In this document: in pieces, positions 22,546-63,063 of the stretch | How positions within the stretch are numbered: the first letter of the stretch is position 1 | How the letters are laid out: each line of letters starts with the position of its first letter | Assembly: GCF_011745625.1 (NCBI RefSeq) | Contig: NW_027191456.1 | Location: 930,001 to 994,000, forward strand | Direction: 5' to 3' | DNA length: 64,000 nt | Source: Cladosporium halotolerans | Lineage: Eukaryota | Made by a program: the position numbers and the translations under genes | The notes under the pieces: model-generated | Seen by the model: the letters and a program-made list of their open reading frames with translations, nothing else | What the model was told of the DNA's origin: nothing | Database searches by the model: none

Positions 22546-25500
22546 TTACTCAACCTGCGTCCTAACCGCCTCGCTGCCCGCCCTCGGCCTGGTGGTGCTC
22601 GGCTCATCGCTCTCGTACTTCTCCCAGTTCGCCAAAATGTTGCCGATGCGCGGCGACGACGTCAGGCGGTAGACGTCCTCGAAGTACTCCTTCGTGAGCT
22701 CGAAGGGCCGCGCCGTGACGTTGGGGATGTACTTGCCGACGAGCTTGCCGGGGTCGATGGAGGTCTTGTTGATCTTCTTGAGCAGGAAAGAGCGGAAGGG
22801 CTTCACGCCGGAGCGCAGGAAGGTCGAGTGGAAGGGGACGTCGATGCCCTTGAGGGGGATGGTGGCGAAGCCGCGCTGGAGCTCGAGGGGCTTGGGCTTG
22901 GCTTCGGTTTGCTTGGCGCACTCTCTGATGATGGAGGTCAGGTGGGCCTTGACGTCCTCGAGCGAGATGGTCTGCATCAGCTGCTGGATGTCGATCTTCT
23001 GGGCCTTGAGGTAGTTGAGGACGTTGGTGAGGCAGTCGAGGGCGCGCAGGTCGCCGGCGCAGACGTACTGCGAGTTCTCGACGTTGAGGTTGACGATCTC
23101 GAGCAGCCAGGTGGTCGTCTCGGCGATGTTCTCGACGACGTACTGCAGGGCCTGCTCGGTGAAGGTCTTGCTGATGCGCGACGGGTTGACGGCGCACATG
23201 GAGTAGTTGGAGCGGCCGGCCTCGTCGCGCTCGACGGCGACCTGCATGGTCAGACCGCGGTAGAAGACGACGGAGACGAGAGACTCGATCGGCATGACCT
23301 CGGCCATGGCGGCCAGGGCGCTGTACTCGCCGAGCGAGTGGCCGGCGAAGCTGCTGTCGCGCTGGACGACACCCTTGTGACGCATGTCCTCGAACGAGGC
23401 CTTCTCCATAAGAGTGAGGGCGGGCTGAGTGAACTGCGTCGCGGAGAGGAGACCGGTGGGCGAGCGGTAGGTGTAGGAGCTGGTGGTCTCGTTGATCTCC
23501 TTGAAGATCTTCTCGGACTTGATGCTGCCGTCGGCAGCCACCGTCTCGAAGGTCATGGCCATGTAGTTCTGGCGGATGGCCTTGCCACGAGCGCCACCGA
23601 AGTGGATGGTGAGCTCGTTGGGGTTGTTCCTGACGATGTTGGTGATGGCGAAGCCTGGATGGAGGATTAGCTAGTGTTACATGTATTGAGAGTTTGAACG
23701 ACGACTTACCATAGTTGTCCAAGAAGTGCTTGTCGGCACGATCCCAGACCTCAGCCGCGACCGGGCTGCTCTCGTAGAGATCCATACCCATACCCTGCTC
23801 CTGGGAACCCTGGCCAGTGAAGACGTAAGCAGACACGGGCTGCTCGATCTCCGCCTCACCGAGGAGGACCTTCTCCTCAGTCTCAGCCTTAGCGGCCTCG
23901 ACCTTGATGATCTTGCGGCCGGAGACCATACCGATGTGCTGGAGGGTGACCTCAATGCTGTCATCGGGAAGGACCATGCCGACAAGGCTGGCGTGGAAGC
24001 TACGCACACGACCGACGTTGTTCTCCGCAGCCCAAGTCTCGACGAGGGAGCGGACAGCAGCGCTGGAGTACATGCCGTGGGTGATGGTGCCAGGCAGGTT
24101 GGCGTACTTGGAGAAGACACGAGAAACGTGGATGGGGTTGTAATCTCCAGAGACGCGAGCGTAGGTCTCGTTGGAGGCGGGAGCCTTCAGAGACAGAGGG
24201 GTCTTGCCGTGCAGCGGGATGGGGTTCTCGAAGTGCACGGGCTGGTCGAGAGAGGTTCCGTTGCGGCTGAGGTAGTCAAGGACCGGGTTGCCGTAGGATG
24301 CGCCCGCCTCGTACTCAACGGAGGCGACCTGGATGATCTCCTTCGTGGGCAATTCGAGCTCGACCTTACCGATGGTCTGCACAGAAGAGAAGACAGTCTC
24401 GTTCTTGTACCTGTTGAGAGTCTGCAGCTTGAAGACCAGAGTCTGGCCGAGAAGCTCGATGTCGGACTCCTCCAGGCGGAACCATTCCTTGGACTGAAGG
24501 ACGGCGATGTCCTTGGTAGTCTCGAGGTGGACCTGGACGGGAGTCTCCACCTTGCGCTGGAAGGTGTTCTCGTAGTCGGTGTAAGTGCCACGGTACAGGA
24601 ACTGAGAGGTGACCTCCATGACGGGCTTGCCGTCACGAGTGATGGTGCCGCAGACCTCGACCAGCTTGCCAGAAGCCTGGTTGATGACGGCGTTGACCTC
24701 AGCGGTGGTGTCAAGGACATCACCCTTCTTGAGCGGCGTCGCACCAGGGAGCATGCGGAAGCCGTTGGAAAGGTGGACGAGCTTGAGAAGGTCACCATCA
24801 ATCTTGCGCGGGAAGATAGGCTTGGTGATGGCCTTCCAGCCAACGACGATGGCGAAGTCCATGGGGGCGAAAACCTCCTTGCCGGGCCTGTCAACGAACG
24901 CCTCGCCGGTGTTGCCGACAGCGTGGACGAAGTCGTTGATGGCCTCGCTAGTGACGGTAGCCCTGCCACCCTCGAAGCGAGAGGTGACCGGGGTGTCGAA
25001 GGGAACAGCCTCATCACCGAACCAGATGCGGTAGTAGAACTCCTTGACGCGGTCGTTGCGAGCATCCATGACCTCGCGAATGGGAGCGTAACCAGTCTCG
25101 GGGTGGTAAGTGAACTTGAGCGTCAGAGCGACAGGCTTGCCGGAGGCGGTGCGGTCCTCGATCATCTTGACGACAATCTCGTTGTTCGCCATCGGGCCGA
25201 CCTCGATGGTCGGGACGTACTTGCCGTGCGACGGCTCCTTGACGGTGACAACGGTGCGCTTGGGGTCGTCGGGGTATGTGATCTCGACCAACATGCCCGG
25301 GGTGGGGGCAAAGATGCGGTGCATCGGGTTGGTCTGGAAACGCTGGCCCTGCACGAAGACATCGGCCGTGAAGAAAGCGTGGCGCCATGAGATGCTGCGG
25401 CCAGCAAGGATCTGCATCCAGTTGTTGACATCCGGGAGAGCGGAGCCAGAGGCGGCGGAAAGACGGAGGATGGTCTTGTTGTCAATCTCCGAGACGGTCA

Positions 25501-28500
25501 GGCCGTCAACGCTGACCTCGTCGCTGGCCTCGATGAGCTTGCCACCGAAGTACTCAACGACAGGGATCTTCTTCTCGTCACCAGCGTAGAGGTCCTTGGT
25601 GAGCATGGCAATGTGACCGTTGTGCACGCCGTCGAGGATCTCCTTGATGGGCTCATCGACCTTGGTGGAGTACTTGGCGGCCATCGGTCCCTGGAGAATG
25701 GCGACTCTGCCAACATCCTGGTCGACAACAGCCTCGAGGTCCTCAGACTGCCACAGGGAGTCCTTCTTGAAGAAGAACTCGAAGGTGTCGTCCAGGCAGG
25801 GGACGAAAGGCACGGGCTTCTGGCCGCGGCGCTGGCACAGGAGCAGGAAGTGCTGGCAGTCCTGAGCGTTGATGAGCTGGTCATCAGCCTCGGGGTAGGC
25901 CTCGAGAACCTTCTTGACAGTGGTGAAGGGCTCGTCGAGCTCGCTGTAGTTCTGGATGAGGGAAGGACCGTCAGCCTTGGCAAAGCGCTCCTCAATGCGA
26001 CGGATGAAGTCGCCGGTGAGCTTGGCCAAAGACTTGTCAATCCAGCGCTTCTGGTGCTTGACGAACATGAGGTCGACCATGCGGCGAACAACCTCACCGT
26101 AGGTCATGTCCTCAAGGTCGACGCACTCGCCGGCGCGGTTGCGGCCGAACCAAGGCTTCTGGAAGTCGTCGTTCAGCTTCTGGATGATGTACTCGCGCTG
26201 CTTCTTGAGCTCGGGAATACGCTTCGCCTTGTCAAGGCTGAAGATCTTCTGGTCCATCTCCGCCCAGAACTTGATACCGCGAGTGGCGATCTTGTGGATC
26301 GGCTCGCCCATCTCAGAGCGGACAGTGATGACACCACCGGCGGGGCCCTTGTAGGTCTTCTCCCACTCGTGGTCGTCGAGACCAGGGGCGTCGACGATGG
26401 CCTGCTTGGCCATCTTGGAGGTGTGCGCCTCCTTGGCGACCATGACACGGCTGCCGAAGAGGACACCGTCGAAGGGCATCGGGGGGTAGCCAAACTTCTG
26501 CGCCCAGGTACCAGTGAGGTAGGGGTAGGTGTCCTCGGAGCCACCGAAGCCGGAGCCGGCAAGGAGGACGAGGTTCGGGCAGCGCCTGATGCGAGTGTAC
26601 ATGGACAGAATCGGCTGGTGGAAGTCCTCGAAAGAGTGGTGACCACCACCGCGACCACCGGTCCACTGCATGATGACAGGGAAGTTGGGGTTCGCCTTGG
26701 CAATGTTGATGGTCTGCTGGATCGCCTCAGAGGAGCCGGGCTTGAAGCTGATGTGCTTGATGCCCAGAGTCTCAATGTACTCGTTGGCAACCTCAATCGA
26801 GGGCACACCGGCACCAATGGTAAGACCCTCAATCGGCACGCCCTCAGCACGCAGCCTGGCGATCATGGGGATCTGCCAGGCCATGGCCCTGGGTGCGACG
26901 TAGATCAAGTTGATGGTGATACCGCGACCAGCGGGAATCTCCTTCTCGATCTTGGCAATGGCCGCGGACATGGTCTTGTCGTTGTAGTATCCACCGCCAG
27001 CAAGCTCGATCTCGTAGCCAGCCTTCATGGTAGAAGCCACAAAGTCCCACGGCACGGTGCAAGGAGTCATACCTGCAACCATGACGGGAGGAAGACCCAG
27101 AAGTCTGCTCATCTTGGTGTCCACAAATGTCTGGCCGACAGATGTTCTCGCAAGCTTAGGTCCGTACTCTTTCACCCAGTCGACGGCGTACTTGACGGCG
27201 TGCTCGGCGTCGCGGTCGAAGATCTCAGGCTTGTAGCCGACCTCGGTGTTGGTGCCGTCCATGGTTCCCGCCAGAATCACACGAACACCGGTGCCGTCCT
27301 TGTTGCGGTTGGTAAGCACGCCGAGACCGGAAATGCCACCAGGGCCGAAGTCAAGGATGTGCGTGGCGTTGGGCATGACAGTAGCGACTTCCCAGTTGAC
27401 GGGATCCTTGCAGATCATGCGGATGAGGTCGGGAACAATGTTGCCACTGGTCTTCTCCCGGAGGTCCTCACCGGTGCAGGTGTCGAACACGGGGATGCCG
27501 AGCTCAGAAGAGGGGATAGAGACGGAGCTGAGGTCCTCCTGGAGGTGCTGGATGGCCTCTGCAAGGTAAGGGCTGTGGAAGGGAGCGGTGATGGGGAGGA
27601 AACGGTTCACGAAGCGAACCTTACGCTCGGTGAAGGGAATGCGAGTCTGATCGAGGCCAGTGGGAGCCTTGACCTTGCGAAGCTGGAGGTTCAGACCGTA
27701 GAGAGACATGGGAGGGCCGGTGACGACGAAGTTACGCGCGCTGTTCACCAGGGAGATACCAATGTGCCTGTCTTTCGGCAGGTGCTCGTTGGTCGTGTCA
27801 ATGTGCTTCTGGACTGCCTCCCGGGGAAGATCACGGATGGACAGCATAGGTGTGGGAGAGCCCTCGCCCTCGTCGATCGAGTCCTGCAGCACATTGGGGG
27901 CGAGAGAAGTGCGCGGGTAAGCCTGCTGGCTGCGAAGACCGATCCAGAAAAGGATGGTGAGCGCATCCCTCGAGGACTTGTCGAATGTCTCAAAGTTCTT
28001 CGAGGCGGCAATCGCAGCCGCGGTGACAACACCCTGCGAGTGACCGGTGGAACCGGAGAAACGCTCCCTGACGTGGCCGGGGTGCGTTCCCAGCACTCGG
28101 CACATGACGAGGTAGTGTGCGAGCTGGGTCAGACCGATGAGCGGGAAGCTGACGGGTGCGGAAACGAGGTACTCGGTGTCGGGCTGGGCGTCCTTGTTGT
28201 TCAACCAGCGCATGACATCCAGACCCTTGGGGTAAAGCTTCTCAGCCTTGGGGTCTCTGGCCAGCTGCTGGAGGTGCGCCGCAGCAGAGGTGATGAAGTC
28301 CTCGACGAGAGTCGGGTATGTGGTGTAAATCTCGCGCAGCTCGTCAAAGTACTCCTCGATGTTGCCCTGGCCGCCGAAGACGGCGTAGATGTAGGCATTC
28401 TCGTCCGCGGCCTCCCGCAGCAGAGCAGACTCGTGCGCCTTGATAGGGCGGCCGACCGCCGAGCGGGCGGCGTAGTAGGAGCGCGCGGTGATGAGCTTCT

Positions 28501-28882
28501 TCTCCACGATGCCGGGCAGGGTGGCGGCGATTGCGTGCACCTCGTTGCCGCGCAGGAAGGCGCGCTCGAACTCTTGTAGCAGTATCTTCAGGACCTCCTC
28601 GTACGAGCCGGGGTCGTCGCCCTCGTCGACCTCCTTGGCGGTGAAGCCGAGATATCTGGCGACCAGCTCGGTGACGGATGAGGGCTCGTCGTCCTGGGCG
28701 AGCTCGTCTGTGGGTTCGGGAAGGGTGGCAAGGAAGGCATCCTTGAGCTGGGTGGCGCTGAAATGAAGAGCAGTGGGTATTAAGAAGTTGTATTCGAGGG
28801 AGCCGTGGGTGAGGGTGAGCGGGCGCGAGACGGCCTGCGAGCGAGGCGTGGACACGCCGGTCTGGGCGCCGGAGCCGTACAT
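22546..28882 (-). CDS. FAS1: Fatty acid synthase subunit beta (AT-ER-DH-MPT)
   Basis: Start [66 protein letters not shown]; one coding intron 23655-23709. Confidence 0.97.
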
Positions 28883-30579
28883 TCTGCTGCTGGCCCTGCG
28901 GATGGCGTCCGGTCGCTGGGAGGAATTACTGAACTGGACGCTCATGGTCAGCGGACTGCAGCGGGCAATGCAATGGGAGGAGCAATTGAGAGCAGAGGTC
29001 AGGCGGCGGTCGGCGAAAGGAGCATGCTCGGCGGCGGGCGGCTGGAAGATTGGAAGTTCCCCGGGGCGAGGAAGCTGCAGCCTGCGAGGCTTTCCAGGTG
29101 TCTCGTGTGCCTGAGGAGCAGCTCGCGTTCCGCGTCCGGACTCGCTGGGGCTGGGAGAGCAGAGCGTACAGCTGGAGGGCCAATGGGTCGGGGACAAGTG
29201 GAATGGAGGGAGAGGCAGTCGCGGTGTCGGTGTTTGGGGGGGCAGATTTCGGCCGTAAGGCGTAAGGAGAGCAGCAGGCAGCACTTACGATTTACAGGCG
29301 TGCTCGCGGGCGGCAGGTCATGGGCGAGCTCTGGATTTTTCGCAGCTGGCCACGCTAGCGGGAAAGCTGCGGCGGAGAGGAGGGGGGAATGAGCGACGGC
29401 GGGCACGCGGCGGCGGAGGGTCGGGGGTGCGGCGTGTGTGCGGGTGTGCGAGTGAGGTTTGGTATAGGTAGAAAGTGGTAGACACGGAGAGGGAGGTGGT
29501 GCGGCGGAGGGCAGGACGAGGCAATGGGGTGGGACGCGGGTGCAGACGGACACTTAACACTCAGGCTGGCGGTGGTGCGTCGGGGCGCGGGCGCGGGCGC
29601 TGGGATGCTGGAGCCGTTGAAAGAGCTGGGTCGGTTGGTGAGGAAGCAGCCGCGTCCCTGCAGCAGGGCCAGCTGTGGGCCGGGCGGGAGTCGCTCGCTG
29701 CCTGCCGACGGTAGCGTGGCGCGTGGGCAGCAGTAGCGGCAGCCTCAGCAGCTCAGCACCTGCAGCGAGTCCTGGCCTCAGGCTGTTGAAGCTTGGGTTG
29801 GTCCCTCGCCCACCCGGCCAGCCAGCGCCGCAGCCCGCGCACCTCAGCGCCTCAGGCCCCAATGATCCCTCCTCGCCCGCCCAGCGCCCGCCGCTACCGC
29901 CCGCCGGACCACTCGAGCCAGCCTAACCACTGCTCTAACCACTGCCGGCTCTGCCTCTAGTTTTTCAAGGAGTCGCCGCCGTGTAGGGCACTCGCTGCCA
30001 ATTTACCACTTCACTGCACTCCATGATTGCACCGCCGCAGCTGCACAATATCACGGTAGCGCATGCACGTCAGGCTGTACGCGCCGCATTGAACCCTCCC
30101 CGCCGTCCCAACCTCCCTGCTTATCGTCAGCCTGCATCTCGCCTGCATACACCTCCCAGGATTTCCACCGCTCTCCGCAAACGCAAATCGTGCACGGCCC
30201 ACCATCGCACCTTGAGCTTCACTCCCAACAGCGTCGCGAGCGTCTCATCCGGTTGCACCCTGGCGCCTTGTACACACGACCACACCTGGCCTGATCATTA
30301 TCGCCCCGTCCGCCCGCCTCCTCCTTGCCCTCTCTCTCTCTTCCTCCAACTCCAATCCCCTCCCGCACCACCGCAATCCGCCCCGTGAGCTGCTCGGTCG
30401 AGGCTGCCTCGGGCAAATTTTCCACCCACTCCTACCACTCCACCTCCGTCTCGACCGCCGAACCCTCCCACCACCACCCACGGGCACCACCTTGATTCTC
30501 GCCAGCGAGTCGCCCGGCTCGTCAATTCGCTCTTTTACACTCTACATCCGCCTCTTAATACCCCTCCGCACCCGCCATC
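28883..30579. promoter_or_regulatory. Bidirectional FAS1/FAS2 promoter and 5' UTRs (GC-rich; FAS1 5'-UTR intron about 28934-29288)
   Basis: Head-to-head FAS genes; minus-strand GTAAGT at 29288, GCTGAC branch point and CAG acceptor at 28934. Confidence 0.7.
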
Positions 30580-33500
30580 ATGCGTCCCGAAGTCGAGCAG
30601 GAGCTCGCCCACACCCTGCTCGTCGAGCTGCTGGCATACCAATTCGCCTCGCCCGTAAGATGGATTGAGACCCAGGATGTCATCCTCGGCGAGAAGACCA
30701 CCGAGCGCATTGTCGAGGTCGGTCCCGCGGACACCCTCGGTGTCATGGCCAAGCGCACCCTGGCCGCCAAATACGAAGCCTACGATGCTGCCCGCTCCGT
30801 CCAGCGCCAGGTTCTCTGCTACAAGAAGGATGGCCCTGATATCTACTACGACGTCGAGCCCATTGAGGACGAGCCTGCTCCCGCCGCCGCGTCCAGCAGT
30901 TCTGCTGCACCCGCTGCTGCTGGTGCTCCCGCCGCCGCGCCTGCTGCCGCTGCGGCGCCTCCGCCTCCCAGCGCTGGCCCTGCGGCCGCCGTTGAGGATG
31001 CTCCTGTCGGCGCTGTCGACATCCTGCGAACACTCGTTGCTCAGAAGCTCAAGAAGCCCTTGACTGACATCCCTCTGAGCAAAGCGATCAAGGACTTGGT
31101 TGGAGGTACGTTCTTGCACAAATGAGATTGTTTCATTTCCTCACTAACACCACGTACAGGCAAGTCCACCCTCCAGAACGAAATCCTCGGTGACCTTGGA
31201 AAAGAGTTTGGATCCACACCTGAAAAGCCCGAAGACACTCCTCTTGACGAGCTGGGAGCGTCCATGCAGACCACCTTCAATGGCCAGCTCGGCAAGCAAT
31301 CCACATCTCTCATCGCCCGCATGGTATCATCAAAGATGCCTGGTGGCTTCAACATCACCGCTGTGCGGAAACACTTGGAGACAAGATGGGGCCTCGGCTC
31401 TGGCAGACAGGACGGCGTCCTGCTGCTTGCTCTGACCATGGAGCCTGCGGCTCGTCTTGGTTCGGAGAACGACGGCAAGGCCTGGTTGGACGATGTTACA
31501 CAGAAGTACGCCTCGGCTGCTGGCATCAGCCTGTCCAGCGGTCCCGCGGCCGGAGACGGCGGCGCGGGCGGCGGCGGCATGATGATGGACCCCGCCGCCA
31601 TCGAGGCCCTCACAAAGGACCAGAAGGCGCTTTTCAAGCAGCAGCTCGAGCTGTTCGCTCGCTACCTGAAGATGGACCTCAGGGCCGGTGACAAGGCTGC
31701 CGTCGCTGGCAAGGAAAACCAGGCCGCTCTGCAGGCGCAGCTCGACCTTTGGAACACCGAGCACGGAGAGTTCTACGCTGCCGGCATTGAGCCCTCATTC
31801 AGCGCGCTCAAGACCCGCGTCTACGACTCCTCCTGGAATTGGGCTCGCCAGGACGCCCTCACCATGTACTACGACATTATCTTCGGCCGCCTGAAGGCTG
31901 TCGACCGTGAGATTGTCAGCCGCTGCATTCTCATCATGAACCGCGCCAACCCCACCCTGCTTGATTTCATGCAGTACCACATCGACCACTGCCCGACCGA
32001 GCGTGGCGAGACCTACAAGCTCGCCAAGGAGCTCGGCGAGCAGCTCATCGACAACTGCAGAGACGTCCTCGACGAGGCGCCTGTCTACAAGGATGTCGCT
32101 GTTCCCACCGCTCCCCAGCTCAAGGTTGACGCCCGCGGCAACATGAACTACGAGGAGGTCCCTCGCGCCAGTGTTCGCAAGCTCGAGCACTACGTGCGTG
32201 AGATGGCCGAGGGAGGCAAGATCTCCGAGTATGGTAACCGCACCAAGGTCCAGAACGACCTCCAGCGCGTCTACAAGCTCATCCGCCAGCAGCACGGCGT
32301 CTCCAAGTCTGCGCAGCTTGAGATCAAGCAGCTCTACAGCAACATCGTTCGCTCTCTCGGCATGAACGAGGGTCAGATCATGCCGGCCGAGAGCGGCAAG
32401 TCCAATGGTGCTCTCAAGAACACCCGCACTGCTCGTGCTCAGGGCCCGACCAAGCAGGGCAAGATCGAGACCGTGCCCTTCCTCCACCTCAAGCGTAAGG
32501 ATGAGCACGGCTGGGAGTACAGCAAGAGGCTGACTGGCGTCTACCTCGATGGTCTTGAGGAGGCCGCTAGGGCCGGTGTCACCTTCCAGGGCAAGAACGT
32601 GCTCATGACTGGTGCTGGTGCCGGTTCCATTGGTGCTGAAGTCCTCCAGGGCCTCATCAGCGGTGGTGCCAAGGTCGTCGTTACCACCTCCCGCTTCTCT
32701 CGTTCCGTCACCGAGTACTACCAGTCCATGTACACCCGCTACGGTGCTCGTGGCTCTCAGCTGGTCGTCGCTCCCTTCAACCAGGGTAGCCAGCAGGACA
32801 CCAACGCTCTTGTTGAGTGGATCTACGACGAGAAGAAGGGTCTTGGCTGGGACCTCGACTTCATTGTCCCCTTCGCTGCCATCCCCGAGAACGGCCGCGA
32901 GATCGACAACATCGACAGCAAGTCTGAGCTCGCTCACCGTATCATGCTCACCAACCTCCTCCGCATGCTCGGTAATGTCAAGACCCAGAAGGCTGCCCGC
33001 AACTTCGACACCAGGCCTGCCCAGGTCATCCTGCCGCTTTCTCCCAACCACGGTACCTTCGGTAACGACGGTCTCTACTCCGAGTCCAAGCTCGCTCTCG
33101 AGACGCTGTTCAACCGCTGGCACTCCGAGAACTGGGGCAACTTCCTCACCATCTGCGGTGCTGTCATCGGCTGGACCCGTGGCACTGGTCTCATGGGTGG
33201 CAACAACATTGTTGCCGAGGGCGTTGAGAAGTACGGTGTGCGCACCTTCTCTCAGCAGGAGATGGCTTTCAACCTGCTCGGCCTGATGGCTCCGTCCATC
33301 GTCAACCTCTGCCAGCAGGAGCCTGTCTTCGCTGACCTCAACGGTGGTCTGCAGTTCCTGCCCAACCTCAAGGAGCTGATGACCAAGCTCCGCAAGGACA
33401 TCACCGAGACCTCCGAGATCCGCCGCGCCGTCACTCGCGAGACTGCGGTCGAGAACAAGATCGTCAACGGCGAGGCCAGCGAGGCTCTCTACAAGACTGT

Positions 33501-36270
33501 CAACGTCAACCAGCGCGCCAACATGAAGTTCGACTTCCCCAAGCTTCCCGACTGGAAGTCTGAGGTCGAGCCGATCAACTCGGACCTCAAGGGCATGGTC
33601 GACCTCGAGAAGGTCGTCGTCGTCACTGGTTTCGCCGAGGTTGGCCCCTGGGGTAACTCCAGGACCCGCTGGGAGATGGAAGCCTACGGCGAGTTCTCTC
33701 TCGAGGGCTGCGTCGAGATGGCTTGGATGATGGGTCTCATCAAGAACCACAATGGTCCCCTCAAGGGCCAGAGCTACTCTGGCTGGGTCGACGCCAAGAC
33801 CAACGAGCCCGTCGACGACAAGGACGTCAAGCCCAAGTACGAGAAGCACATCCTCGAGCACTCCGGTATTCGTCTCATCGAGCCTGAGCTGTTCAACGGC
33901 TACGACCCGAACAAGAAGGAGCTGCTGCAGGAGATCCAGACTCAGGAGGACCTCGAGCCCTTCGAGGCGTCCAAGGAGACTGCTGAGGAGTTCAAGCGTC
34001 AGCACGGCGACAAGGTCGAGATCTTCGAGCTTGAGTCCGGCGAGTTCTCCGTGCGTCTTCTCAAGAACGCCACGCTCCTCATCCCCAAGGCTCTCCGCTT
34101 CGACCGTCTCGTCGCTGGCCAGATTCCCACTGGCTGGAACGCCAAGCTCTACGGTATCCCCGACGACATCATTTCTCAGGTCGACCCGGTCACCCTCTAC
34201 GTCCTCGTCTCCACTGTCGAGGCTCTCCTGTCCTCTGGTATCACCGACCCGTACGAGTTCTACAAGTACGTGCACATCTCCGAGGTCGGTAACTGCATTG
34301 GTTCCGGTATTGGCGGTACCAGCGCTCTGCGCGGCATGTACAAGGATCGCTACCTCGACAAGCCTCTGCAGAAGGACATCCTGCAGGAGTCTTTCATCAA
34401 CACTATGAGTGCTTGGATCAACATGTTGCTCATGTCCTCCACCGGTCCCATCCGCACCCCGGTCGGTGCCTGCGCCACTGCCGTCGAGTCCATCGACATC
34501 GGTTACGACTGCATTGTCGAGGGCAAGGCCCGCATGTGCTTCGTTGGTGGTTTCGATGACTTCCAGGAGGAGGGTTCCTACGAGTTCGCCAACATGAAGG
34601 CCACCAGCAACGCCGAGGACGAGTTCGCCCACGGCCGCACCCCGGCTGAGATGTCTCGTCCCACCACCACCACCCGTAACGGCTTCATGGAGTCCCAGGG
34701 TTGCGGTATGCAGGTCATCATGGACGCCAAGCTCGCGCTCGACATGGGTGTCCCGATCTACGGTATCCTTGGCCTCACCGCCACTGCCACCGACAAGATC
34801 GGCCGCTCCGTCCCTGCTCCGGGCCAGGGTGTGCTCACCACTGCTCGTGAGACCCCGGGCAAATTCCCCTCGCCTCTTCTCGACATCAAGTACCGCAAGA
34901 GGCAGATGGATCTCCGCCGCAAGCACATCAAGAACTGGCAGGAGTCCGAGCTGATGTACCTGCAGGAGGAGGTTGCCGCAATGAAGCAGCAGGGCGGCAC
35001 CTTCGACGAGACCGAGTACATGGAGGACCGCGCCGCTCACATCGAGCGCGAGGCCAGACGCCAGGAGAAGGACGCCCTGTACAGCCTGGGCAACAACTTC
35101 TGGAAGTCCGACCCCAAGATCGCTCCTCTGCGCGGCGCCCTCGCTACCTGGGGCCTGACCATCGACGACCTGAACGTCGCCTCCTTCCACGGCACCTCCA
35201 CCGTCGCCAACGACAAGAACGAGTCCGACGTGCTCTGCCAGCAGATGAACCACCTCGGCCGCCAGAAGGGCAACGCGCTCATGGGCATCTTCCAGAAGTA
35301 CCTCACCGGCCACCCCAAGGGTGCCGCCGGCGCGTTCATGTTCAACGGCGCCCTGCAGGTCCTCAACAGCGGCCTCGTCCCCGGCAACCGCAACGCCGAC
35401 AACGTCGACAAGGTCATGGAGAAGTTCGACTACATCGTCTACCCCAACCAGGCCATCCAGACGGACGGCATCAAGGCCTTCTCCGTCACCTCCTTCGGCT
35501 TCGGCCAGAAGGGCGCCCAGGCCATCGGCATCCATCCGCGCTACCTCTTCGCCACCCTCGACGCCGCCCAGTTCAACGCCTACAAGACCAAGGTCGAGGC
35601 CCGCCAGAAGAAGGCCTACCGCTACTACCACGACGGCCTGATCAACAACAACATCTTCCGCGCCAAGGACAAGTCGCCCTACGAGGACGCGCAGCAGTCC
35701 GCCGTCTTCCTCAACCCAGACGCCCGCGTCGCCCTCGACAAGAAGTCCGCCGGCCTCATGTACCCCAAGAAGGCCCCCGCCAAGCCCCAAGACAAGAGCA
35801 CCACCGAGATGGTCGAGTCGCTCATGAAGGTCAACGCCTCCGCCAATTCTAACCCCGGCGTCGACATCGAGAGCATCGACGCCCTCGACATCCACAACGA
35901 TACTTTCGTCGAGCGCAACTTCACCCCGCAGGAGATCGCTTACTGCCGCGCCCAGCCCAGCCCGCAGGCCTCTTTCACGGGCCGCTGGAGCGCCAAGGAG
36001 GCCGTTTTCAAGAGCTTGAAGGTCGAGGGCAAGGGTGCGGGCGCGCCGCTGAGGGAGATCGAGATCGTGAACGCCGAGACGGGGGCGCCGACTGTTGTGG
36101 TGAGTTCATCGTGTTGACTATGAGGTGTTATGGGATGTTTGCTAATATCGTCTTTACAGCTCCACGGCGACGCCAAAGCTGCCGCTGCTAAGGCTGGCGT
36201 CAAGGATACCACGGTCAGCATCTCGCACAGCGACGCGCAGGTCATCGCTGTTGCTATCTCGTCGTTCTAG
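30580..36270 (+). CDS. FAS2: Fatty acid synthase subunit alpha (ACP-KR-KS-PPT)
   Basis: [77 protein letters not shown]; introns near 31106-31159 and 36100-36159; stop 36268-36270. Confidence 0.97.
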
Positions 36271-46049: not shown

Positions 46050-47986
46050 ATGACACCGCTTCAGTCTGCCTTGCTGCTAGCGTTCTCACATCTTGCATAC
46101 GCCGAGCAGCCATCTGCGCCGGCACCCATAAGCGCGCCCTTGCGCGAGCTACCTTGGGGGCAACTGAACTTCCTGCATACAACAGGTAGGTGAACTGTGC
46201 AGTATCGCTGGTCAGCCTGTGGACTAATCGACTCATCTATAAAGACACGCATGGCTGGCATGGTGGTCACCTTCAAGAACCGCAGTACAGCGCAGATTGG
46301 GGTGACTACATCAGCTTTGCTAAACACTTGCATAAGCGAGCCGATGAGGATGGCTCAGATCTTCTGCTGATTGATACCGGTGACCGGGTCGAGGGCAATG
46401 GCCTCTACGATGCCAGCAACCCGAAGGGTAAATATACATTCGATATCTTCAAGCACCAAAACATCGATGTGATCACGAGTGGCAATCACGAGCTTTACCT
46501 CAGTAACTCCAGTAACAACGAGTACTACAACACCGTACCAAACTTCAAGCAGTCGTATATTGCTTCAAATCTGGACATTCAGAATCCCAAAACGGGCGAG
46601 CTGGAACCTCTTGCACCAAGATACCGAAAGTTCACCACGAAGAACCAGGGTATTCGCATTATCTCGTTTGGATTTCTGTTCAATTTCCATGGAAATGCGA
46701 ACAATACGGTGGTGCAGCCTGTTCAGGAGACTGTCAAGGAGCAATGGTTCCAAGACGCTATCAGGATCAAGGACGTCGATTTGTTCCTTGTAGCTGGACA
46801 TGTACCGGTTAGAAACAGCGAAGAGTACGATCTGATTTACAAAGCGATTCGAAACGCTAGATGGGACACGCCTATTGTGTTCTTCGGCGGCCACACGCAT
46901 ATCCGTGATTACAGGAAGTGGGAGAAAGCAGCTCAGGGCATTGAGAGTGGTCGCTACATGGAGACACTTGGCTTTTTGTCGATGTCTGGCCTGAACTCTG
47001 AGAAGAAGGGACTCGTTGTGCCCGAGAAATCAGGTCTATCGTACCAGAGGCTGTACATCGACAACAATCTGCACTCTCTGCACCATCACTCAGGCACCAA
47101 TGCTACTACCTTCTCGACGGACGTTGGGAAGAACGTCTCGCAAGCCATATACCAAGCTCGCAACAATCTAAACCTGGACCACGCATTTGGTTGCGCTCCC
47201 ACGGACTACTGGCTCAGCCGGGCACCCTACCCATCTGATCAGAGCTTGTTGAGCTGGTTAGAAAAGAGCGTGCTCCCGGATACCTTCAGCGGGGGTAAGA
47301 CGCCTTCGATTGTCATCACCAACACTGGAGCCATGCGCTTCGACATCTTCAAAGGACCGTTCACTATAGATAGCACGTTCTTGGTATCTCCATTCACAAG
47401 TGGCTTCAGAAAGGCCGTAAATGTGCCTTACAAAGCGGCTAGCCAGGTCCTTCAGCTCCTCAACAACGAAGGCCCTATCCTGCTCGAAGATCTCCTGGCT
47501 CTCAAAGAACAGGGACTCGACACAATGGGGACTCATAGACTGGACGATCTTGCCCCTCCTCTTCCTCCCGTAAACCTGGCAACTTTGATCGATCAATCAC
47601 CAACGAAGCACGCACTATTCCGCTCCGAGCAGCAAAGCCCGATCGAAGGCCCTGGAGTCGTCTCCGACAAACCCAATATACCTGGATACACCACAGTTGA
47701 TGACATGGGCAGCGATGGGGATGACACCATTCACGAGCGGATTAAGTTCTACGATGTTCCGAACTGCGTTGGGGCTAGCGTGAATTTCGATCCGGCCGAC
47801 AAGACTGGTGCTCCAGAGAAGATAGACCTGGTGTACAACGAGTTCGTTCAAGATTGGGTTCTCTTGGCTTTGAGGTTCCTGGGGGTGAAATATGAGAAGG
47901 AAGATACAAGAAGCGCGCTGGACGGAAAGACGATGACAGATGTCATTAGCGATTGGGTTGGTGAGCATTGGAAGTGCGAGAATTAA
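46050..47986 (+). CDS. Secreted/vacuolar calcineurin-like metallophosphoesterase, 5'-nucleotidase type (YHR202W-like)
   Basis: Signal peptide; NFLHTT/DTHGWH across an intron, DTGDRVEGNG, GNHE, GGHTH, NTGAMRFDIFKGPF. Confidence 0.88.
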
Positions 47987-48683
47987 AGATACATTTCAAG
48001 CGAACGGGAACGACCGCCTCGAACTCAACCATAAATCGTAGTCTTGAAAGCGTCCACTTCTCACCCGAAGGTTTGTAGCCTTCGGAAGACTATGACGTGT
48101 TTGGGTACAGGCGAAATACAGGTTCTCTGAGTTAAAGCCTTTGTCTCCATGTTCTACAAGAGAAGTAAGTATATCACTCCTATTTCTTTCGGGAGGACAC
48201 AGACATCCAGAGATCACGGGCTGCTTTACACAAGGTATCATGGAACCTCAGACCTTGATCTTTCAGAGGAGCAATGAGTGATGGGTGCCAATGACAATCG
48301 TTGTTCGTCAGAATCAACGCAATGAAATCAGCCAGTCTTTCAAATGCCAATCAGAAGTCGAGTTTCGCTTGCTTACCTCCCAGCTCCATAGCGCAGCAGA
48401 AGTTTCCAGTTGGGTGGTTCGAGAAGCTGGCGGCGGGCGCGCTACGATCGAGAGCAGCCAATCACGAGCTCTGCAGAGGTAAAGATCCACGTGAATGACC
48501 ACGATTGATAGCATGAATATCAGATGGCAGCAGGCATAAAACAGCTCGTCTCTACTCTTCGATCAGCTGTTTGCATTCATTCATCACGAAACCTCGACAT
48601 CAACTGATCCAAGCATCAACCACCCTTTGCCATCATCCAATTCAATTAACCCGACCAACAACCAACAACAACTTCACATCACA

Positions 48684-49108
48684 ATGTCTGCCACCGCTGC
48701 CATTCCTGCCACCTGCTGCGGTCGCGAGGGAGGGTGCATTTGCGCCTCCGAGGCTAAGTGCTCCTGCGGCAAGCAGCCTGCCCTCCACTGTACCTGCGAG
48801 AAGGCTCAAACCGAGAACAAGACCTCAGGAGCTAGGTGCTCTTGCAGTAAGTTTATGATCGGCAATGGCCAACACCGATACCGCTGTCTTTCAGATTGAT
48901 CGTCCGACGGAAACTGACTCCTATGACAGACCAGCGTCCTGCCGGCGAGTGCACTTGCAGCCGTTCTAGCAACGAGAACAGCAAGCCCACCGGCTCCGCC
49001 TGCGCCTGTGGCAAGAGGTCTCAGGATGCTTGCAACTGCGGTGGCACTGAGATTGGCCAGGCTTCGGACCTCGAGACCGACTTCACCACCAAGGCCTCTG
49101 GTGCCTAA
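48684..49108 (+). CDS. Cys-rich metallothionein-like (Crd2-type) protein, 2 exons
   Basis: CC, CxC and CSCG repeats: TCCGREGGCICASEAKCSCGKQPALHCTCEKA...RCSC/NQRPAGECTCSRS...CACGKRSQDACNC...ETDFTTK. Confidence 0.8.
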
Positions 49109-50390: not shown

Positions 50391-51317
50391 GGAAATTGTA
50401 GAGTTGGGCGAAGGAAAACACGAGCGATTGATCTGCTTTCCGCTTTGCGACCTCACTTCGCGCGGACTGTGACGTCAGGCTTGCAGCGATCTCATACCAT
50501 GTGTGAATCGGATTTCCGTGGCCATTATGGCGAAGCGGCTAGACCAGTTCGAAGAGCTGACTCTAATTTGACAGGAAACAACTACGGTTCGGAGAGAACG
50601 AATTCAATGATTATCGAGACTGCCTTGGTGGGACGGAGGATGCTTGTAGGTTTTGCGGTGACTTGAAGCTTCACGCGAACCTAAAGATGAGACTTATCAC
50701 AAGGCCCAAGATCGAAAAAGGCAACATGGTTTTAGCATACATTAGATGAGGCATAGAGACGTGCTTTCGATTTTCACTCCACCAGGGCGCTCACTTGAGG
50801 ACATACCGGACGGTAGGGCTACCTTGATCCTCACTTCATTTGAACCTAGGTTTTCAAACAACGAAGGCAAGCACTGGCGCATGATCCAAGCTGTCACTGT
50901 AATATCAAATTGCGCATACATTTTGATGCGTCAAATGAAGTATGTGTAGGTCCCAACCAGCGCAAAAGAATCCAACATAAGGCTATTTGCAATGATTTGC
51001 ATAGGATTCGTAAGGTAGCTTCGGTTTTAACGGCAGCCGAAGCTGAAATAGGCGTAAGAACGGAGCAGCAAGAATCTTCGGTAACTTCGTCTATGCACCC
51101 AATCACGTCTTTAGAGAGATATTGCGTTGTCGACCTCGGACGGCCATTGCAACCCTCACATTAGCCTCACATCATCTTTATGCTGCCCTCACATTGACCT
51201 CGAAAGTTTGTTGCTGACTCCAACACGCCTCGTCCCATCTCACCTCAGACTGGAATAAAAAAGACCTCTCTGCCAGTGGCACTTGTGATTATGCATACAT
51301 TAGGAACAATTCGAGGC

Positions 51318-51323
51318 AAAAAA
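51318..51323 (-). terminator. RNA polymerase III terminator (T6)
   Basis: TTTTTT 5 nt after the tRNA discriminator base. Confidence 0.75.
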
Positions 51324-51328
51324 GAGAT

Positions 51329-51480
51329 TACCGTGGACGCGGTTCGAACGCGCGCGGATCGCTCCAGTAGAGTAATGTTGAGGTCAACTTAAATCTACCG
51401 CCTTAGACCACCTGGGGAAATGTTAACGGAGGCCCCTGATTGGCCTGATTCCGGAAGAAAACTTACTCGGCCACCACGGT
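51329..51480 (-). tRNA. trnL-UAA: tRNA-Leu(UAA) interrupted by a 55-nt spliceosomal-type intron in the D-loop (51412-51466) and a 15-nt canonical intron after position 37 (51373-51387)
   Basis: Spliced: ACCGTGG TG GCCGA|GTGGTCTAAGGC G GTAGA TT TAA G|C TCTAC TGGAGCGATCCGC GCGCG TTCGAAC CGCGT CCACGGT A. Perfect 7-bp acceptor stem, class II variable arm, intact B box, T6 terminator at 51318-51323. Confidence 0.9.
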
Positions 51481-52161
51481 GTGCATTTTGACGTCATTTC
51501 GGTCTTTTACAGCTATAACTACTATAAACCAACACAGTTTGACTAGGAAGCATGTGAATCAGCCAGCTTCACGTTTGGTTCAGTGTCATGGCGCTCGAGG
51601 GGATCGAATTGTGATTGCATTTTCGTAAATTGAGTTCACAATGTGAGATTACACCTAGTCATCTATCTTGAATGCTTCAGCAAACTTGAGGGAGCATACG
51701 TTTCGGGTCGTCACTACTGGTGCCCATATGTAGCCAGTGACAACTCCATGTGGGTTCTTATACCACATCATTCTCGCAGAACAAGTCGATTGAGACATTA
51801 ATGCATCATCGGCAGCACACCATATGCCACTCCTTGAACGAGCGCGAACATAGACCTCTCGGTTTCCCATAGCTCACTGAGAACTAAGGAAACCTAGCCG
51901 CTCCCGCTTGGGCTGATAACTTGTATGGAACATGGAATGGTATGGTTCTTTTTCCTTTCACATGGTAATACACCGAATCTCATGTACCTCGCTGCTGCAT
52001 GATTGAATCTTGTGGTACACCGCCATTATATGTACACTTTCCCTCGAAATGATGTTGGCTTGCAGCGCAAAAGCCGATCCTCTACCCCCAATGTTCTTGC
52101 ACAACTCGTAACCAGAGTTGTTACTTCTTCGCTCAATACCATCGCACGATTTGTTGCTCGT

Positions 52162-52725
52162 TCAAGAGGGACGGCCGGGGAAAGTGCGGAGACCGTCGCG
52201 GGAGGTGGCAGACGCGCGCTTGAAGCTCTGGGTCGCTCATCAGTATAATGCCATCGAAAGAAGTGAGCTGAATCTAGACAAGCAGAAGCTGCCGATTCGA
52301 TCGTGCCGCGTGGGCTAAACACAACGGCGCTCCCACTCCTGCTAATGTCCATAACGCCCAACTTCTTCTCAACATGTACTTACAGAGTCGCACTCCTCCC
52401 AAGCCCTTCCAGCGCCGAATCCAAGACCTGTGAAGACTGGCCACGACCTGCGTTTGAAAAGGAGGACGGAGAAGATTACACCAAAAGACGCGCCGAGGGT
52501 GCTGCGGATGAGGAGAGTGCTAAGGCAGTGGTCCCACTGCAAGGCTAGTTAGCTTGCGTTCCCAGCATACATCGGCGATACGGATAATTTCTCCCCATCG
52601 ACCCAGTCTCTGATATGCTCTTGGCAAGCACTTCATACCTTCTCGTTAAGCAGAGCCTCACTCATCGGCCTGTTGGGGCGGGCCGCAGCGGCGGTGATGG
52701 GCGCGTTGGTGTTTGAGTCGGCCAT
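52162..52725 (-). CDS. MIC10: MICOS complex subunit Mic10 (3 exons; not in ORF track)
   Basis: MADSNTNAP...SEALLNEK/WDHCLSTLLIRSTLGASFGVIFSVLLFKRRSWPVFTGLGFGAGRAWEECDS/SFKRASA...*; GxGxGxG TM motif and KRR loop. Confidence 0.92.
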
Positions 52726-61693: not shown

Positions 61694-63063
61694 ATGAAGG
61701 TGTGTTATCGCGTTACACAGACGACGTCGCGACCGCGCGCCAATGCCAAATATCACCACCCTGATGGAGCTCGCGCGTTGTGTTGCCGTTTGTGCTGCCC
61801 GTCAGCGCATCCAGCGTTTCAAGCCGCCCGCGAGCTGGTCGCGACGGTCGATCTACGCGCGTCGTGAAATAGTAGCTAACAACATTGCAGTACATTCCAA
61901 TTGGTGAGATTAACGCAGTAAACAGCGCGATTAACTTCTCTACGCCTGATCTCCATGTCATTGGCGGCTGCGACATCTACACGACAAAAGCCGCGGGCGG
62001 AGACAAGAAACTGTACAAGAACATCGAAGATGCACTGGAATCGCAGTATGCGACTCTCGTCCAGCTGTCTGCGTCGCTTAGTCCGCCTCCCGAGATCAGC
62101 AAGCGCAATGATAAGCATAGAGATTCCACTGCAAGCGCTCAAGATTATGGAAGAAATGAGAGGAAGCGCAGTCGCACGGTTGAGATCCCGGAGATTGATC
62201 TCTCCCGAGCGTCCCCCTTCGGACCCCTGAGTCAAGTGTCGTCCAGGCGCACGTTTGCGTATCTGATTGCAACCCTCAATGCAAGTCACTCTGACTACGA
62301 CTTCTCGCACCTTCTACGACCCTCAGACTTCCAGAAGGAGCGTTCCCTCCGTGCCCTTGTGCACAACGTCGACTCGACGCTCTACAACTTGCGCCCCCGT
62401 CACAGCAGCCTGGTTGCGAACCAGCAATACCTTGCACCGCCGAACCTCTCCAGCTCAGCTCCCGTGTCTAATGGTCTCGGCAATGAGGTATGGGGCCCTA
62501 GGATGTGGTCTCTCATTGACAAGGAGATGAACCTCCGCGAATGCGAGAGATACAGCTACATGCCTCAGGACGACCCATTTGACGGCGAGGAGGGCGCAAT
62601 ATGGAGTCTGCACTACTTCTTCTTCAACAAGGAGCGCAAGCGCGTCTGCTATCTCTATCTTCGCGGTCTCAGCGTGCTTTCGCACTCGCCTGTCCATGCG
62701 CCCATGCACATTCACCGAACTCGCCAAAGCCGCGATTCTGGCGTCTCCGTCGGTGAAGGTGCCGGCAAGCGAGCAGATTACTGGCTCGGCTCAAGCATCG
62801 ATGAAAATATCATGGATGAGGGCGAGTACGAGGATGACGACGATGAGATCATCCACGACGAGTATGAGCACCAGGACGACGAAGTTGAAGTCCCCTACAT
62901 GGACCTGGACGAAGTGAGAAACCGCATTGTCGACGGCTACAACTACGATTTTGAGGAGATTGAATACGAAGAAGATACCTCCTCCTGGGCTGTCGACAAC
63001 GGGACGAAGACGAGAGGCGTAAGAGGCATGAGCGAGGAGATTGGCGATGCGATGGAGATATGA
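61694..63063 (+). CDS. MAF1: Repressor of RNA polymerase III transcription Maf1
   Basis: MK/YIP (intron 61700-61890), GGCDIYTTKAAGGDKKLYK, FGPLSQVSSRRTFAYLIATLNASHSDYDFS, IWSLHYFFFNKERKRV, acidic tail. Confidence 0.95.

Follow-up and report, generated by a model that had tools for sequence, protein, structure and literature searches.

Eukaryotic introns are presented as falling into three unrelated types, with spliceosomal introns assigned to the transcripts of RNA polymerase II (Pol II), in the account of intron types in PMC12530127. Spliceosomal introns are also found in genes for non-coding RNAs: the U6 small nuclear RNA (snRNA) genes of S. pombe (Tani and Ohshima 1989) and of many fungi (Canzler 2016) carry them, as do the U1, U2 and U5 snRNA genes of Rhodotorula hasegawae and the ribosomal RNA (rRNA) genes of ascomycetes (Takahashi 1993, 1996; Bhattacharya 2000; all cited in PMC5855946). 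In that review's passage on non-coding hosts, U6, U2, U5, U1 and rRNA are given, and transfer RNA (tRNA) is not among them; a review of tRNA introns (PMC4090602) mentions the spliceosome 0 times. A full-text literature search, whose coverage leaves subscription journals largely outside, returned no report of a spliceosomal intron in any tRNA gene, and the phrase "spliceosomal introns in tRNA" did not occur in the texts searched. Here we describe a tRNA-Leu(UAA) gene in a 64,000-nt stretch of Cladosporium halotolerans DNA (contig NW_027191456.1, positions 930,001 to 994,000; the whole stretch is called the window) which is interrupted between A14 and G15 by a 55-nt insert. Judged by its sequence features, the insert is most likely a genuine spliceosomal-type intron in a functional gene.

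The locus is a class II tRNA-Leu(UAA) gene carrying two introns of different kinds. Its parts, with positions counted from the first base of the window, are as follows.

51329..51480, minus strand: whole tRNA-Leu(UAA) gene, class II, 152 nt as DNA and 82 nt when mature before CCA (ARAGORN, after in-silico removal of both inserts)
51467..51480, minus strand: exon 1, ACCGTGGTGGCCGA, tRNA positions 1-14, with the 5' acceptor strand, U8, G9 and the first part of the D arm; ARAGORN draws a 7/7 pairing with 51336-51330
51412..51466, minus strand: 55-nt intron, probably of spliceosomal type, at A14/G15 (assigned from splice signals, local intron size, a diverged copy and the lack of a bulge-helix-bulge, BHB)
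51388..51411, minus strand: exon 2a, with the remaining D arm, the 5' anticodon stem and loop positions 32-37 including the anticodon TAA
51373..51387, minus strand: canonical 15-nt tRNA intron at 37/38, endonuclease type (ARAGORN intron option; its removal gives Leu(taa))
51329..51372, minus strand: exon 2b, with position 38, the 3' anticodon stem, the long variable arm, the T arm, the 3' acceptor strand and the discriminator A73
51349-51341, minus strand: B box GTTCGAACC, within the T arm of exon 2b
51462..51473, minus strand: A-box region of the interrupted gene, TGGCCGAGTAAG
51318..51323, minus strand: T6 run resembling an RNA polymerase III (Pol III) terminator, 5 nt past the discriminator

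The position of the 55-nt insert is exactly that given in the initial annotation: the minus strand leaves the tRNA after A14, at 51466, and rejoins it at G15, after 51412. The same annotation had assigned the gene to tRNA-Leu(UAA), an identity which ARAGORN confirms by its Leu(taa) call, the class II shape and the 7/7 acceptor stem. With both inserts removed, the mature 82-nt tRNA has the complete acceptor stem, a D arm, an anticodon arm, a long variable arm and a T arm. The gene ends at 51329 with CCACGGTA, and the T6 run lies beyond it, at 51323-51318. The canonical 15-nt intron at 37/38 (51387-51373) was absent from the earlier reading and is added here; once it is removed the anticodon loop reads TT-TAA-G|C, and in the predicted fold this intron pairs with the anticodon loop.

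In its intact form the gene is invisible to the programs applied, as the initial annotation had anticipated. ARAGORN finds no tRNA in the 64-kb window, Rfam at gathering thresholds has no match in the whole window, and Rfam at E<=10 on 51250-51560 yields two chance hits and no tRNA match. When the 55 nt are cut out in silico, ARAGORN finds a class II tRNA with a 15-nt intron in the anticodon loop, and when both inserts are cut out it calls an 82-nt tRNA-Leu(taa); when the canonical intron alone is cut out, it finds nothing. Removal of the 55 nt is thus the only step that rescues a cloverleaf, which supports the interpretation of the insert as an intron. The expectation in the initial annotation was a high-scoring Leu-TAA call only after removal of 51412-51466. 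A class II tRNA does emerge at that point, but the Leu(taa) label appears only when the 15-nt intron is removed as well. With the 55 nt alone removed, ARAGORN applies the label Ile(tat), which we reject since it misplaces the 15-nt intron inside the anticodon and would make this a class II Ile tRNA.

The insert has the signals of a U2-type intron. A 5' splice site GTAAGT, matching GTRNGT, is found at 51466-51461, a branch motif TTAAC at 51426-51422, with its A at 51423, 11 nt from the insert end, and an acceptor CAG at 51414-51412. A repeated G leaves the boundaries of the insert ambiguous by one base, GT/AG being one of two equivalent registers. Loosely defined, the three signals are an initial GTRNGT, a YTRAC within a stretch of 15 sites close to the end and YAG as the last three bases; a random 55-mer with the base composition of the window would carry all of them with a probability of about 3e-6.

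To place these features in their local context, candidate introns of protein-coding genes were collected from the window by a heuristic that looks for GTRNGT, a YTRAY near the end and AG, and demands that removal joins open frames of at least 60 codons which read-through would close. This gave 47 candidate rows, many of them alternative acceptors or artefacts of a GC-rich block at 22-29 kb. The six best candidates, short ones flanked on either side by 100 open codons or more, are heuristic gene models without transcript verification.

14481-14531: local mRNA-intron candidate (heuristic joining of open reading frames, ORFs)
31106-31159: local mRNA-intron candidate (ORF-joining heuristic)
46186-46244: local mRNA-intron candidate (ORF-joining heuristic)
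23709-23655: local mRNA-intron candidate (ORF-joining heuristic)
7167-7113: local mRNA-intron candidate (ORF-joining heuristic)
5578-5527: local mRNA-intron candidate (ORF-joining heuristic)

These six measure 51-59 nt, compared with 55 nt for the tRNA insert, and regular fungal introns are put at 50-55 bp in the treatment of intron sizes in PMC4457414. Their 5' ends are GTAAGT, GTACGT, GTGAGT or GTAGGT, their 3' ends are all YAG or AAG, and the distance from the branch A to the intron end is 11-12 nt in four of the six, 17 in one and 30 in one. The proposal that the insert combines U2-type signals (GTAAGT, TTAAC, CAG) with the size of a local mRNA intron therefore agrees with what was found.

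Further evidence comes from related sequences. A search of public sequencing runs listed 24 runs, 20 of which contain part of the stretch; these carry 13 coded organism labels plus metagenomes, and none is on record as RNA. One run of raw RNA reads, X24, was offered, a single-cell library from an organism that shares only 0.08 of the words. Contigs of four runs (X17, X1, X4 and X8) were aligned to the locus; the X8 contig covers 51148-51360, and 51526-51780 is without cover in all four runs. The insert is present in three contig records of relatives, which differ in their distance from the window. X17 record 3 has zero listed differences over gene and insert, and X4 record 6 has a single listed change, at 51444. 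X17 record 4 is a diverged copy: between 51414 and 51451, and hence inside the insert, lie 12 substitutions, a 1-nt insertion and a 1-nt deletion, and the canonical intron has a single substitution (51384). The listing leaves out differences less than about 21 nt from the end of a piece; for the 48 exon positions that lie far enough inside, the listed changes are 0/48, against 14/55 for the insert positions (Fisher p = 7e-5).

The changes within the diverged copy leave the splicing signals in place. Record 4 of X17 keeps the first 15 intron bases, the terminal AG and the 55-nt length. Its acceptor has changed from CAG to AAG, with AG kept, and three changes at 51426-51428 convert GTTAAC to ACTAAC at the same distance from the end, ACTAAC being the commoner fungal branch motif. 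That 14 changed positions would by chance miss the 12 core signal positions has a probability of 0.018. This pattern, seen in one copy, is what the initial annotation had predicted for relatives, namely conserved exons and splice signals with a diverged intron interior, and it points to exons under purifying selection and to splice signals that have been retained. Two scans of a metagenome collection, one for the exon 1 end followed by GTNNGT, 30-60 nt, AG and the exon 2 start, the other for a 30-mer spanning the tRNA 3' end and its flank, each returned 0 loci, the collection evidently being without this fungus.

A form that lacks the insert is represented by a contig of run X1, from a close relative. 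This contig, 314 nt long with a word depth of 5, matches 51113-51411, that is, from 216 nt downstream of the gene to G15. Beyond 51411 it carries 8 more letters, TCGGCCAC on the plus strand, whose reverse complement is exon 1 positions 7-14; the chance of an 8-letter match is about 1.5e-5. As the contig runs from G15 straight into exon 1 positions 7-14, it lacks exactly the 55 nt of the insert but retains the canonical 15-nt intron. The insert-less form is seen only as this 8-letter loose end, and no joints were reported across the four runs. The contig shares all six listed flank differences, at 51220-51267, with that of X4, in which the insert is present and which the search tool judged to be probably DNA. 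For X1 the guess of the tool is RNA, and if that guess is right, the contig would be a precursor on which the spliceosome has already acted and the endonuclease has not, in keeping with the order expected. It could equally be DNA, from an organism that lost the insert or never had it, the difference falling precisely at the GT/AG boundaries.

These data bear on the possibility that the locus is dispensable or dead, being one among several Leu-UAA genes and holding an intron or a degenerated introner-like element that is not productively removed, with exon identity maintained by gene conversion and with X1 as DNA of an insert-free lineage. The host is a Dothideomycete, a class in which introner-like elements create introns according to the description of these elements in PMC4457414, the X1 contig could indeed be DNA, and TTA is so rare (3.2% of Leu codons) that one gene copy might be spared. 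We nevertheless regard such a copy as distinctly improbable, in view of the listed changes in the diverged copy, 14 in 55 insert positions against 0 in 48 exon positions, and since conversion from an intron-less paralogue over an exon 1 of 14 nt would be expected to remove the insert rather than preserve it. In the diverged copy, moreover, the insert remains 55 nt long with its 5' splice site and AG intact, its branch motif has improved, and the insert occurs in three contig records of relatives besides the source of the window. Size and copy number also speak against an introner: introner-like elements are long as described in PMC4457414, whereas the insert has the size of a regular intron, and no further copy is present in the 64-kb window, where blastn-short gives the self-hit and chance 8-11-mers only. 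There is therefore no sign of an active introner family in the window. With intron gain being active in this fungal class, as that account of introner-like elements has it (PMC4457414), a reasonable guess is that the insert originated as a gained intron which is now old and degenerated.

A second alternative accepts the insert as a real tRNA intron and has it removed without the spliceosome, either by an endonuclease with relaxed position rules, as in Cyanidioschyzon merolae and in nucleomorphs, or by an IRE1-type route of endonuclease plus ligase. Precedents are available, as the survey of ectopic tRNA introns in PMC3728597 includes a 69-bp D-loop intron of C. merolae that is processed by the endonuclease pathway, and nucleomorph ectopic introns that mostly have no BHB motif. 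A BHB consists of two 3-nt bulges containing the cut sites with a 4-bp helix between them, or takes a relaxed hBH/HBh' form (figure legend in PMC3728597). At the insert junctions, two arrangements in 32 register combinations were considered and no 4-bp central helix was found, the best reaching 3 of 4 pairs with G-U counted; neither a BHB nor a relaxed BHB register fits, which upholds the earlier view that the architecture is not that of the tRNA endonuclease (TSEN). The fungal enzyme, moreover, measures from the mature domain to 37/38, and its subunit Sen54 contacts the D arm, in the parts of PMC4090602 and PMC3728597 that treat substrate recognition. Under this explanation the full set of spliceosomal signals, correctly spaced and kept in the diverged copy, would be a coincidence left unexplained, and we consider it very unlikely indeed.

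Two more specific ideas were tried and rejected. By inspection, the 5' junction misfits the IRE1 loop consensus as set out in PMC12530127, which speaks against IRE1-type removal. A pairing between insert and exon 2, present in the minimum-energy fold, appeared to be a candidate for a conserved structure, but comparison by hand showed that the pairing partners are changed in the diverged copy.

We thus favour spliceosomal removal, and the maturation of the tRNA might proceed as follows. The primary transcript would hold the 55-nt GU...UUAAC...CAG intron at A14/G15 and the 15-nt intron at 37/38. Its synthesis by Pol III is suggested by the largely intact A box, the intact B box and the T6 terminator. 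The A-box consensus is TRGCNNAGTGG; the A box in the DNA matches 9 of 11 consensus positions, with the first bases of the intron, GT, standing at G15 and T16, and the distance from A-box start to B-box start is 124 nt. The major (U2-type) spliceosome would recognise and remove the 55-nt intron, as it does with the Pol III-made U6 precursor of fission yeast and other fungi, and this removal would restore the D loop. End processing would come next, and the 15-nt intron would then be removed by the tRNA splicing endonuclease and ligase. Removal at the RNA level, the spliceosome as its agent, the polymerase and the order of the two splicing steps are what we infer from these features.

A tRNA with a UAA anticodon is needed, since TTA codons are in use: they make up 17 of the 524 Leu codons (3.2%) in seven window ORFs, so that the earlier remark on their occurrence in the window holds, and they are rare but used. 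In its most complete form, the proposal is that a Pol III pre-tRNA is spliced at A14|G15 by the spliceosome before the canonical intron is removed, that the interrupted form is the only or the main decoder of UUA in a clade of Dothideomycetes related to Cladosporium, and that translation of UUA depends on splicing capacity. This combination of claims we put forward tentatively, as a possibility that falls short of being probable.

Several observations weigh against the favoured reading, a functional gene from which the spliceosome removes the insert. The window has TTAAC as branch motif, where CTAAC or CTGAC is commoner. With no more than 14 nt and a short leader, the 5' exon, which would normally be uncapped and lies within the acceptor stem, makes an awkward substrate for the spliceosome; a T4 run in the intron (51461-51458) might also terminate Pol III early. 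No molecule is on record as RNA, and the X1 contig, which could equally be DNA of an intron-less allele, extends 216 nt past the T6 run in a way that a normal Pol III transcript does not. The comparison of exons and insert depends on one diverged copy, which may be a paralogue or stem from another organism in the same run; five of its differences are unplaced, falling either within 51340-51360 (T arm) or within 51481-51501 (5' flank), and in the worst case they raise the exon-versus-insert p to 0.005. Conservation in this copy is not limited to the signals, as two further blocks of the insert, 15 nt each, are likewise without change. Finally, intact Leu-UAA paralogues may exist elsewhere in the genome, and gene conversion could homogenise the exons.

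An alternative concerns the polymerase. The tRNA gene sits in a gap of about 2 kb between two genes of the minus strand, MIC10 and an Oxidored-like gene.

52369-52548 plus an upstream exon, minus strand: MIC10 (Pfam DUF543)
50390-49662, minus strand: Oxidored-like gene, single-exon coding sequence
further on, plus strand: Urb2

As MIC10, the tRNA gene and the Oxidored-like gene share the strand, the spliceosome might remove the same 55 nt from a Pol II transcript running through the locus, with the tRNA being released by RNase P and RNase Z; this differs from the scheme above in the polymerase only. Such a transcript could be a long non-coding RNA, could read through from MIC10 or could belong to the Oxidored-like gene as a long leader. 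Recruitment of the spliceosome is normally coupled to Pol II, the overhang of the insert-less X1 contig beyond the T6 terminator would be accounted for, and the X8 contig (51148-51360) likewise spans the tRNA 3' end and the downstream flank. Both contigs, however, may simply be DNA; about 890 nt separate the tRNA gene from the MIC10 stop upstream and about 940 nt from the Oxidored-like start downstream; and the B box, the 9/11 A box and the T6 run just after the discriminator, which are relevant to Pol III only, have all been kept. We therefore judge a Pol II origin unlikely, though it deserves consideration. Whichever polymerase is responsible, Pol II included, we think it probable that this is a functional tRNA-Leu(UAA) gene from which the spliceosome removes the insert.

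The flanks of the gene show some further features. The contigs of X1, X4 and X8 end within 35 nt of one another downstream of the tRNA gene (51113-51148); if those of X1 and X8 are RNA, the shared ends might mark the 3' end of a transcript reading through the T6 run, or they may be due to chance. The 3' flank is 97-99% identical in the contigs of relatives. The 5' flank differs, as the contigs of all four runs cease to match by about 51501-51525, with X17 record 4 continuing in dissimilar sequence. A possible TATA-like element, TTATAG, lies 33-38 nt before the gene (51518-51513).

In the wider neighbourhood, no other tRNA-like B box or D-arm motif was found in the window. The nearest named relatives of the Oxidored-like protein are from Cladosporium species (73-74% identity), those from other Dothideomycetes being lower, and one relative reaches 84%. 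A gene for Maf1, the general repressor of Pol III, is located on the plus strand at 61876-63063, 10 kb from the tRNA gene, which is probably coincidence. At 48540-49108 (plus strand) there are two small cysteine-rich ORFs with many CxC and CC motifs, and a candidate 83-nt GTAAGT...CAG intron at 48847-48929 joins them, the product being metallothionein-like in appearance. The GC-rich block extends over about 22600-36100, with a GC content of 0.60-0.66 compared with about 0.52 elsewhere; it contains ORFs of 2226 aa (minus strand, 22604-29284) and 1663 aa (plus strand, 31126-36117), and long open frames occur on the opposite strands too.

If the proposed removal takes place, tRNA, with its conserved spliceosomal intron, would join U6, U1, U2, U5 and rRNA among the non-coding hosts. 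This would make for a second and independent instance in which the spliceosome acts on a Pol III-type product, and here reverse splicing at the active site could not serve as the explanation. The tRNA-Leu(UAA) would need both splicing systems, the spliceosome and the tRNA endonuclease, and the decoding of a codon would be tied to splicing. In fungal tRNA sets, apparent gaps may hide other genes of this kind, since neither ARAGORN nor the Rfam tRNA model detects this one.

An intron in tRNA-Leu(UAA) is in itself familiar from cyanobacteria and plastids, where a self-splicing group I intron of a few hundred nt resides in the anticodon loop of the bacterial or organellar gene. The isoacceptor is the same as that of the insert-bearing gene described here, but the kind of intron, its size, its site and the compartment all differ. 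Among introns of tRNA genes cut by the endonuclease, the 15-nt intron at 51387-51373 is of the same kind as the canonical intron at 37/38, whereas the 55-nt insert at 14/15 lies beyond the reach of the ruler of the yeast enzyme, as that mechanism is outlined in PMC4090602. There is a resemblance in position to C. merolae, for which the account in PMC3728597 gives D-loop introns (up to 69 bp), several introns per tRNA gene, a disturbed A box and a 37/38 intron that is processed last. Its introns are, however, of BHB type and cut by the endonuclease (PMC3728597), while the tRNA-Leu insert has no BHB and instead has a GT, a branch motif and an AG.

Among spliceosomal introns, the introner-like elements of Dothideomycetes are a source of new introns in the same class of fungi and thus a plausible origin for the insert, but the insert is single-copy in the window and belongs to the regular 50-55 bp size class rather than to the longer elements, as the two are distinguished in PMC4457414. 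The introns of U1, U2, U5 and rRNA genes are, like the present one, spliceosomal introns in genes that do not code for protein, some of which are not transcribed by Pol II; their host RNAs are other than tRNA. The U6 genes too are small non-coding RNA genes with Pol III promoter elements and a short GT-AG intron that has canonical signals and is otherwise unconserved, and the U6 intron is removed by the spliceosome in the description given in PMC5855946, a removal which for the tRNA-Leu insert we infer. The host here is a tRNA and not a component of the spliceosome, so that the proposed origin of U6 introns, by reverse splicing at the active site, is inapplicable; and the tRNA-Leu gene differs further from U6 in its 5' exon of 14 nt and in carrying, within the same gene, an intron of the endonuclease type.

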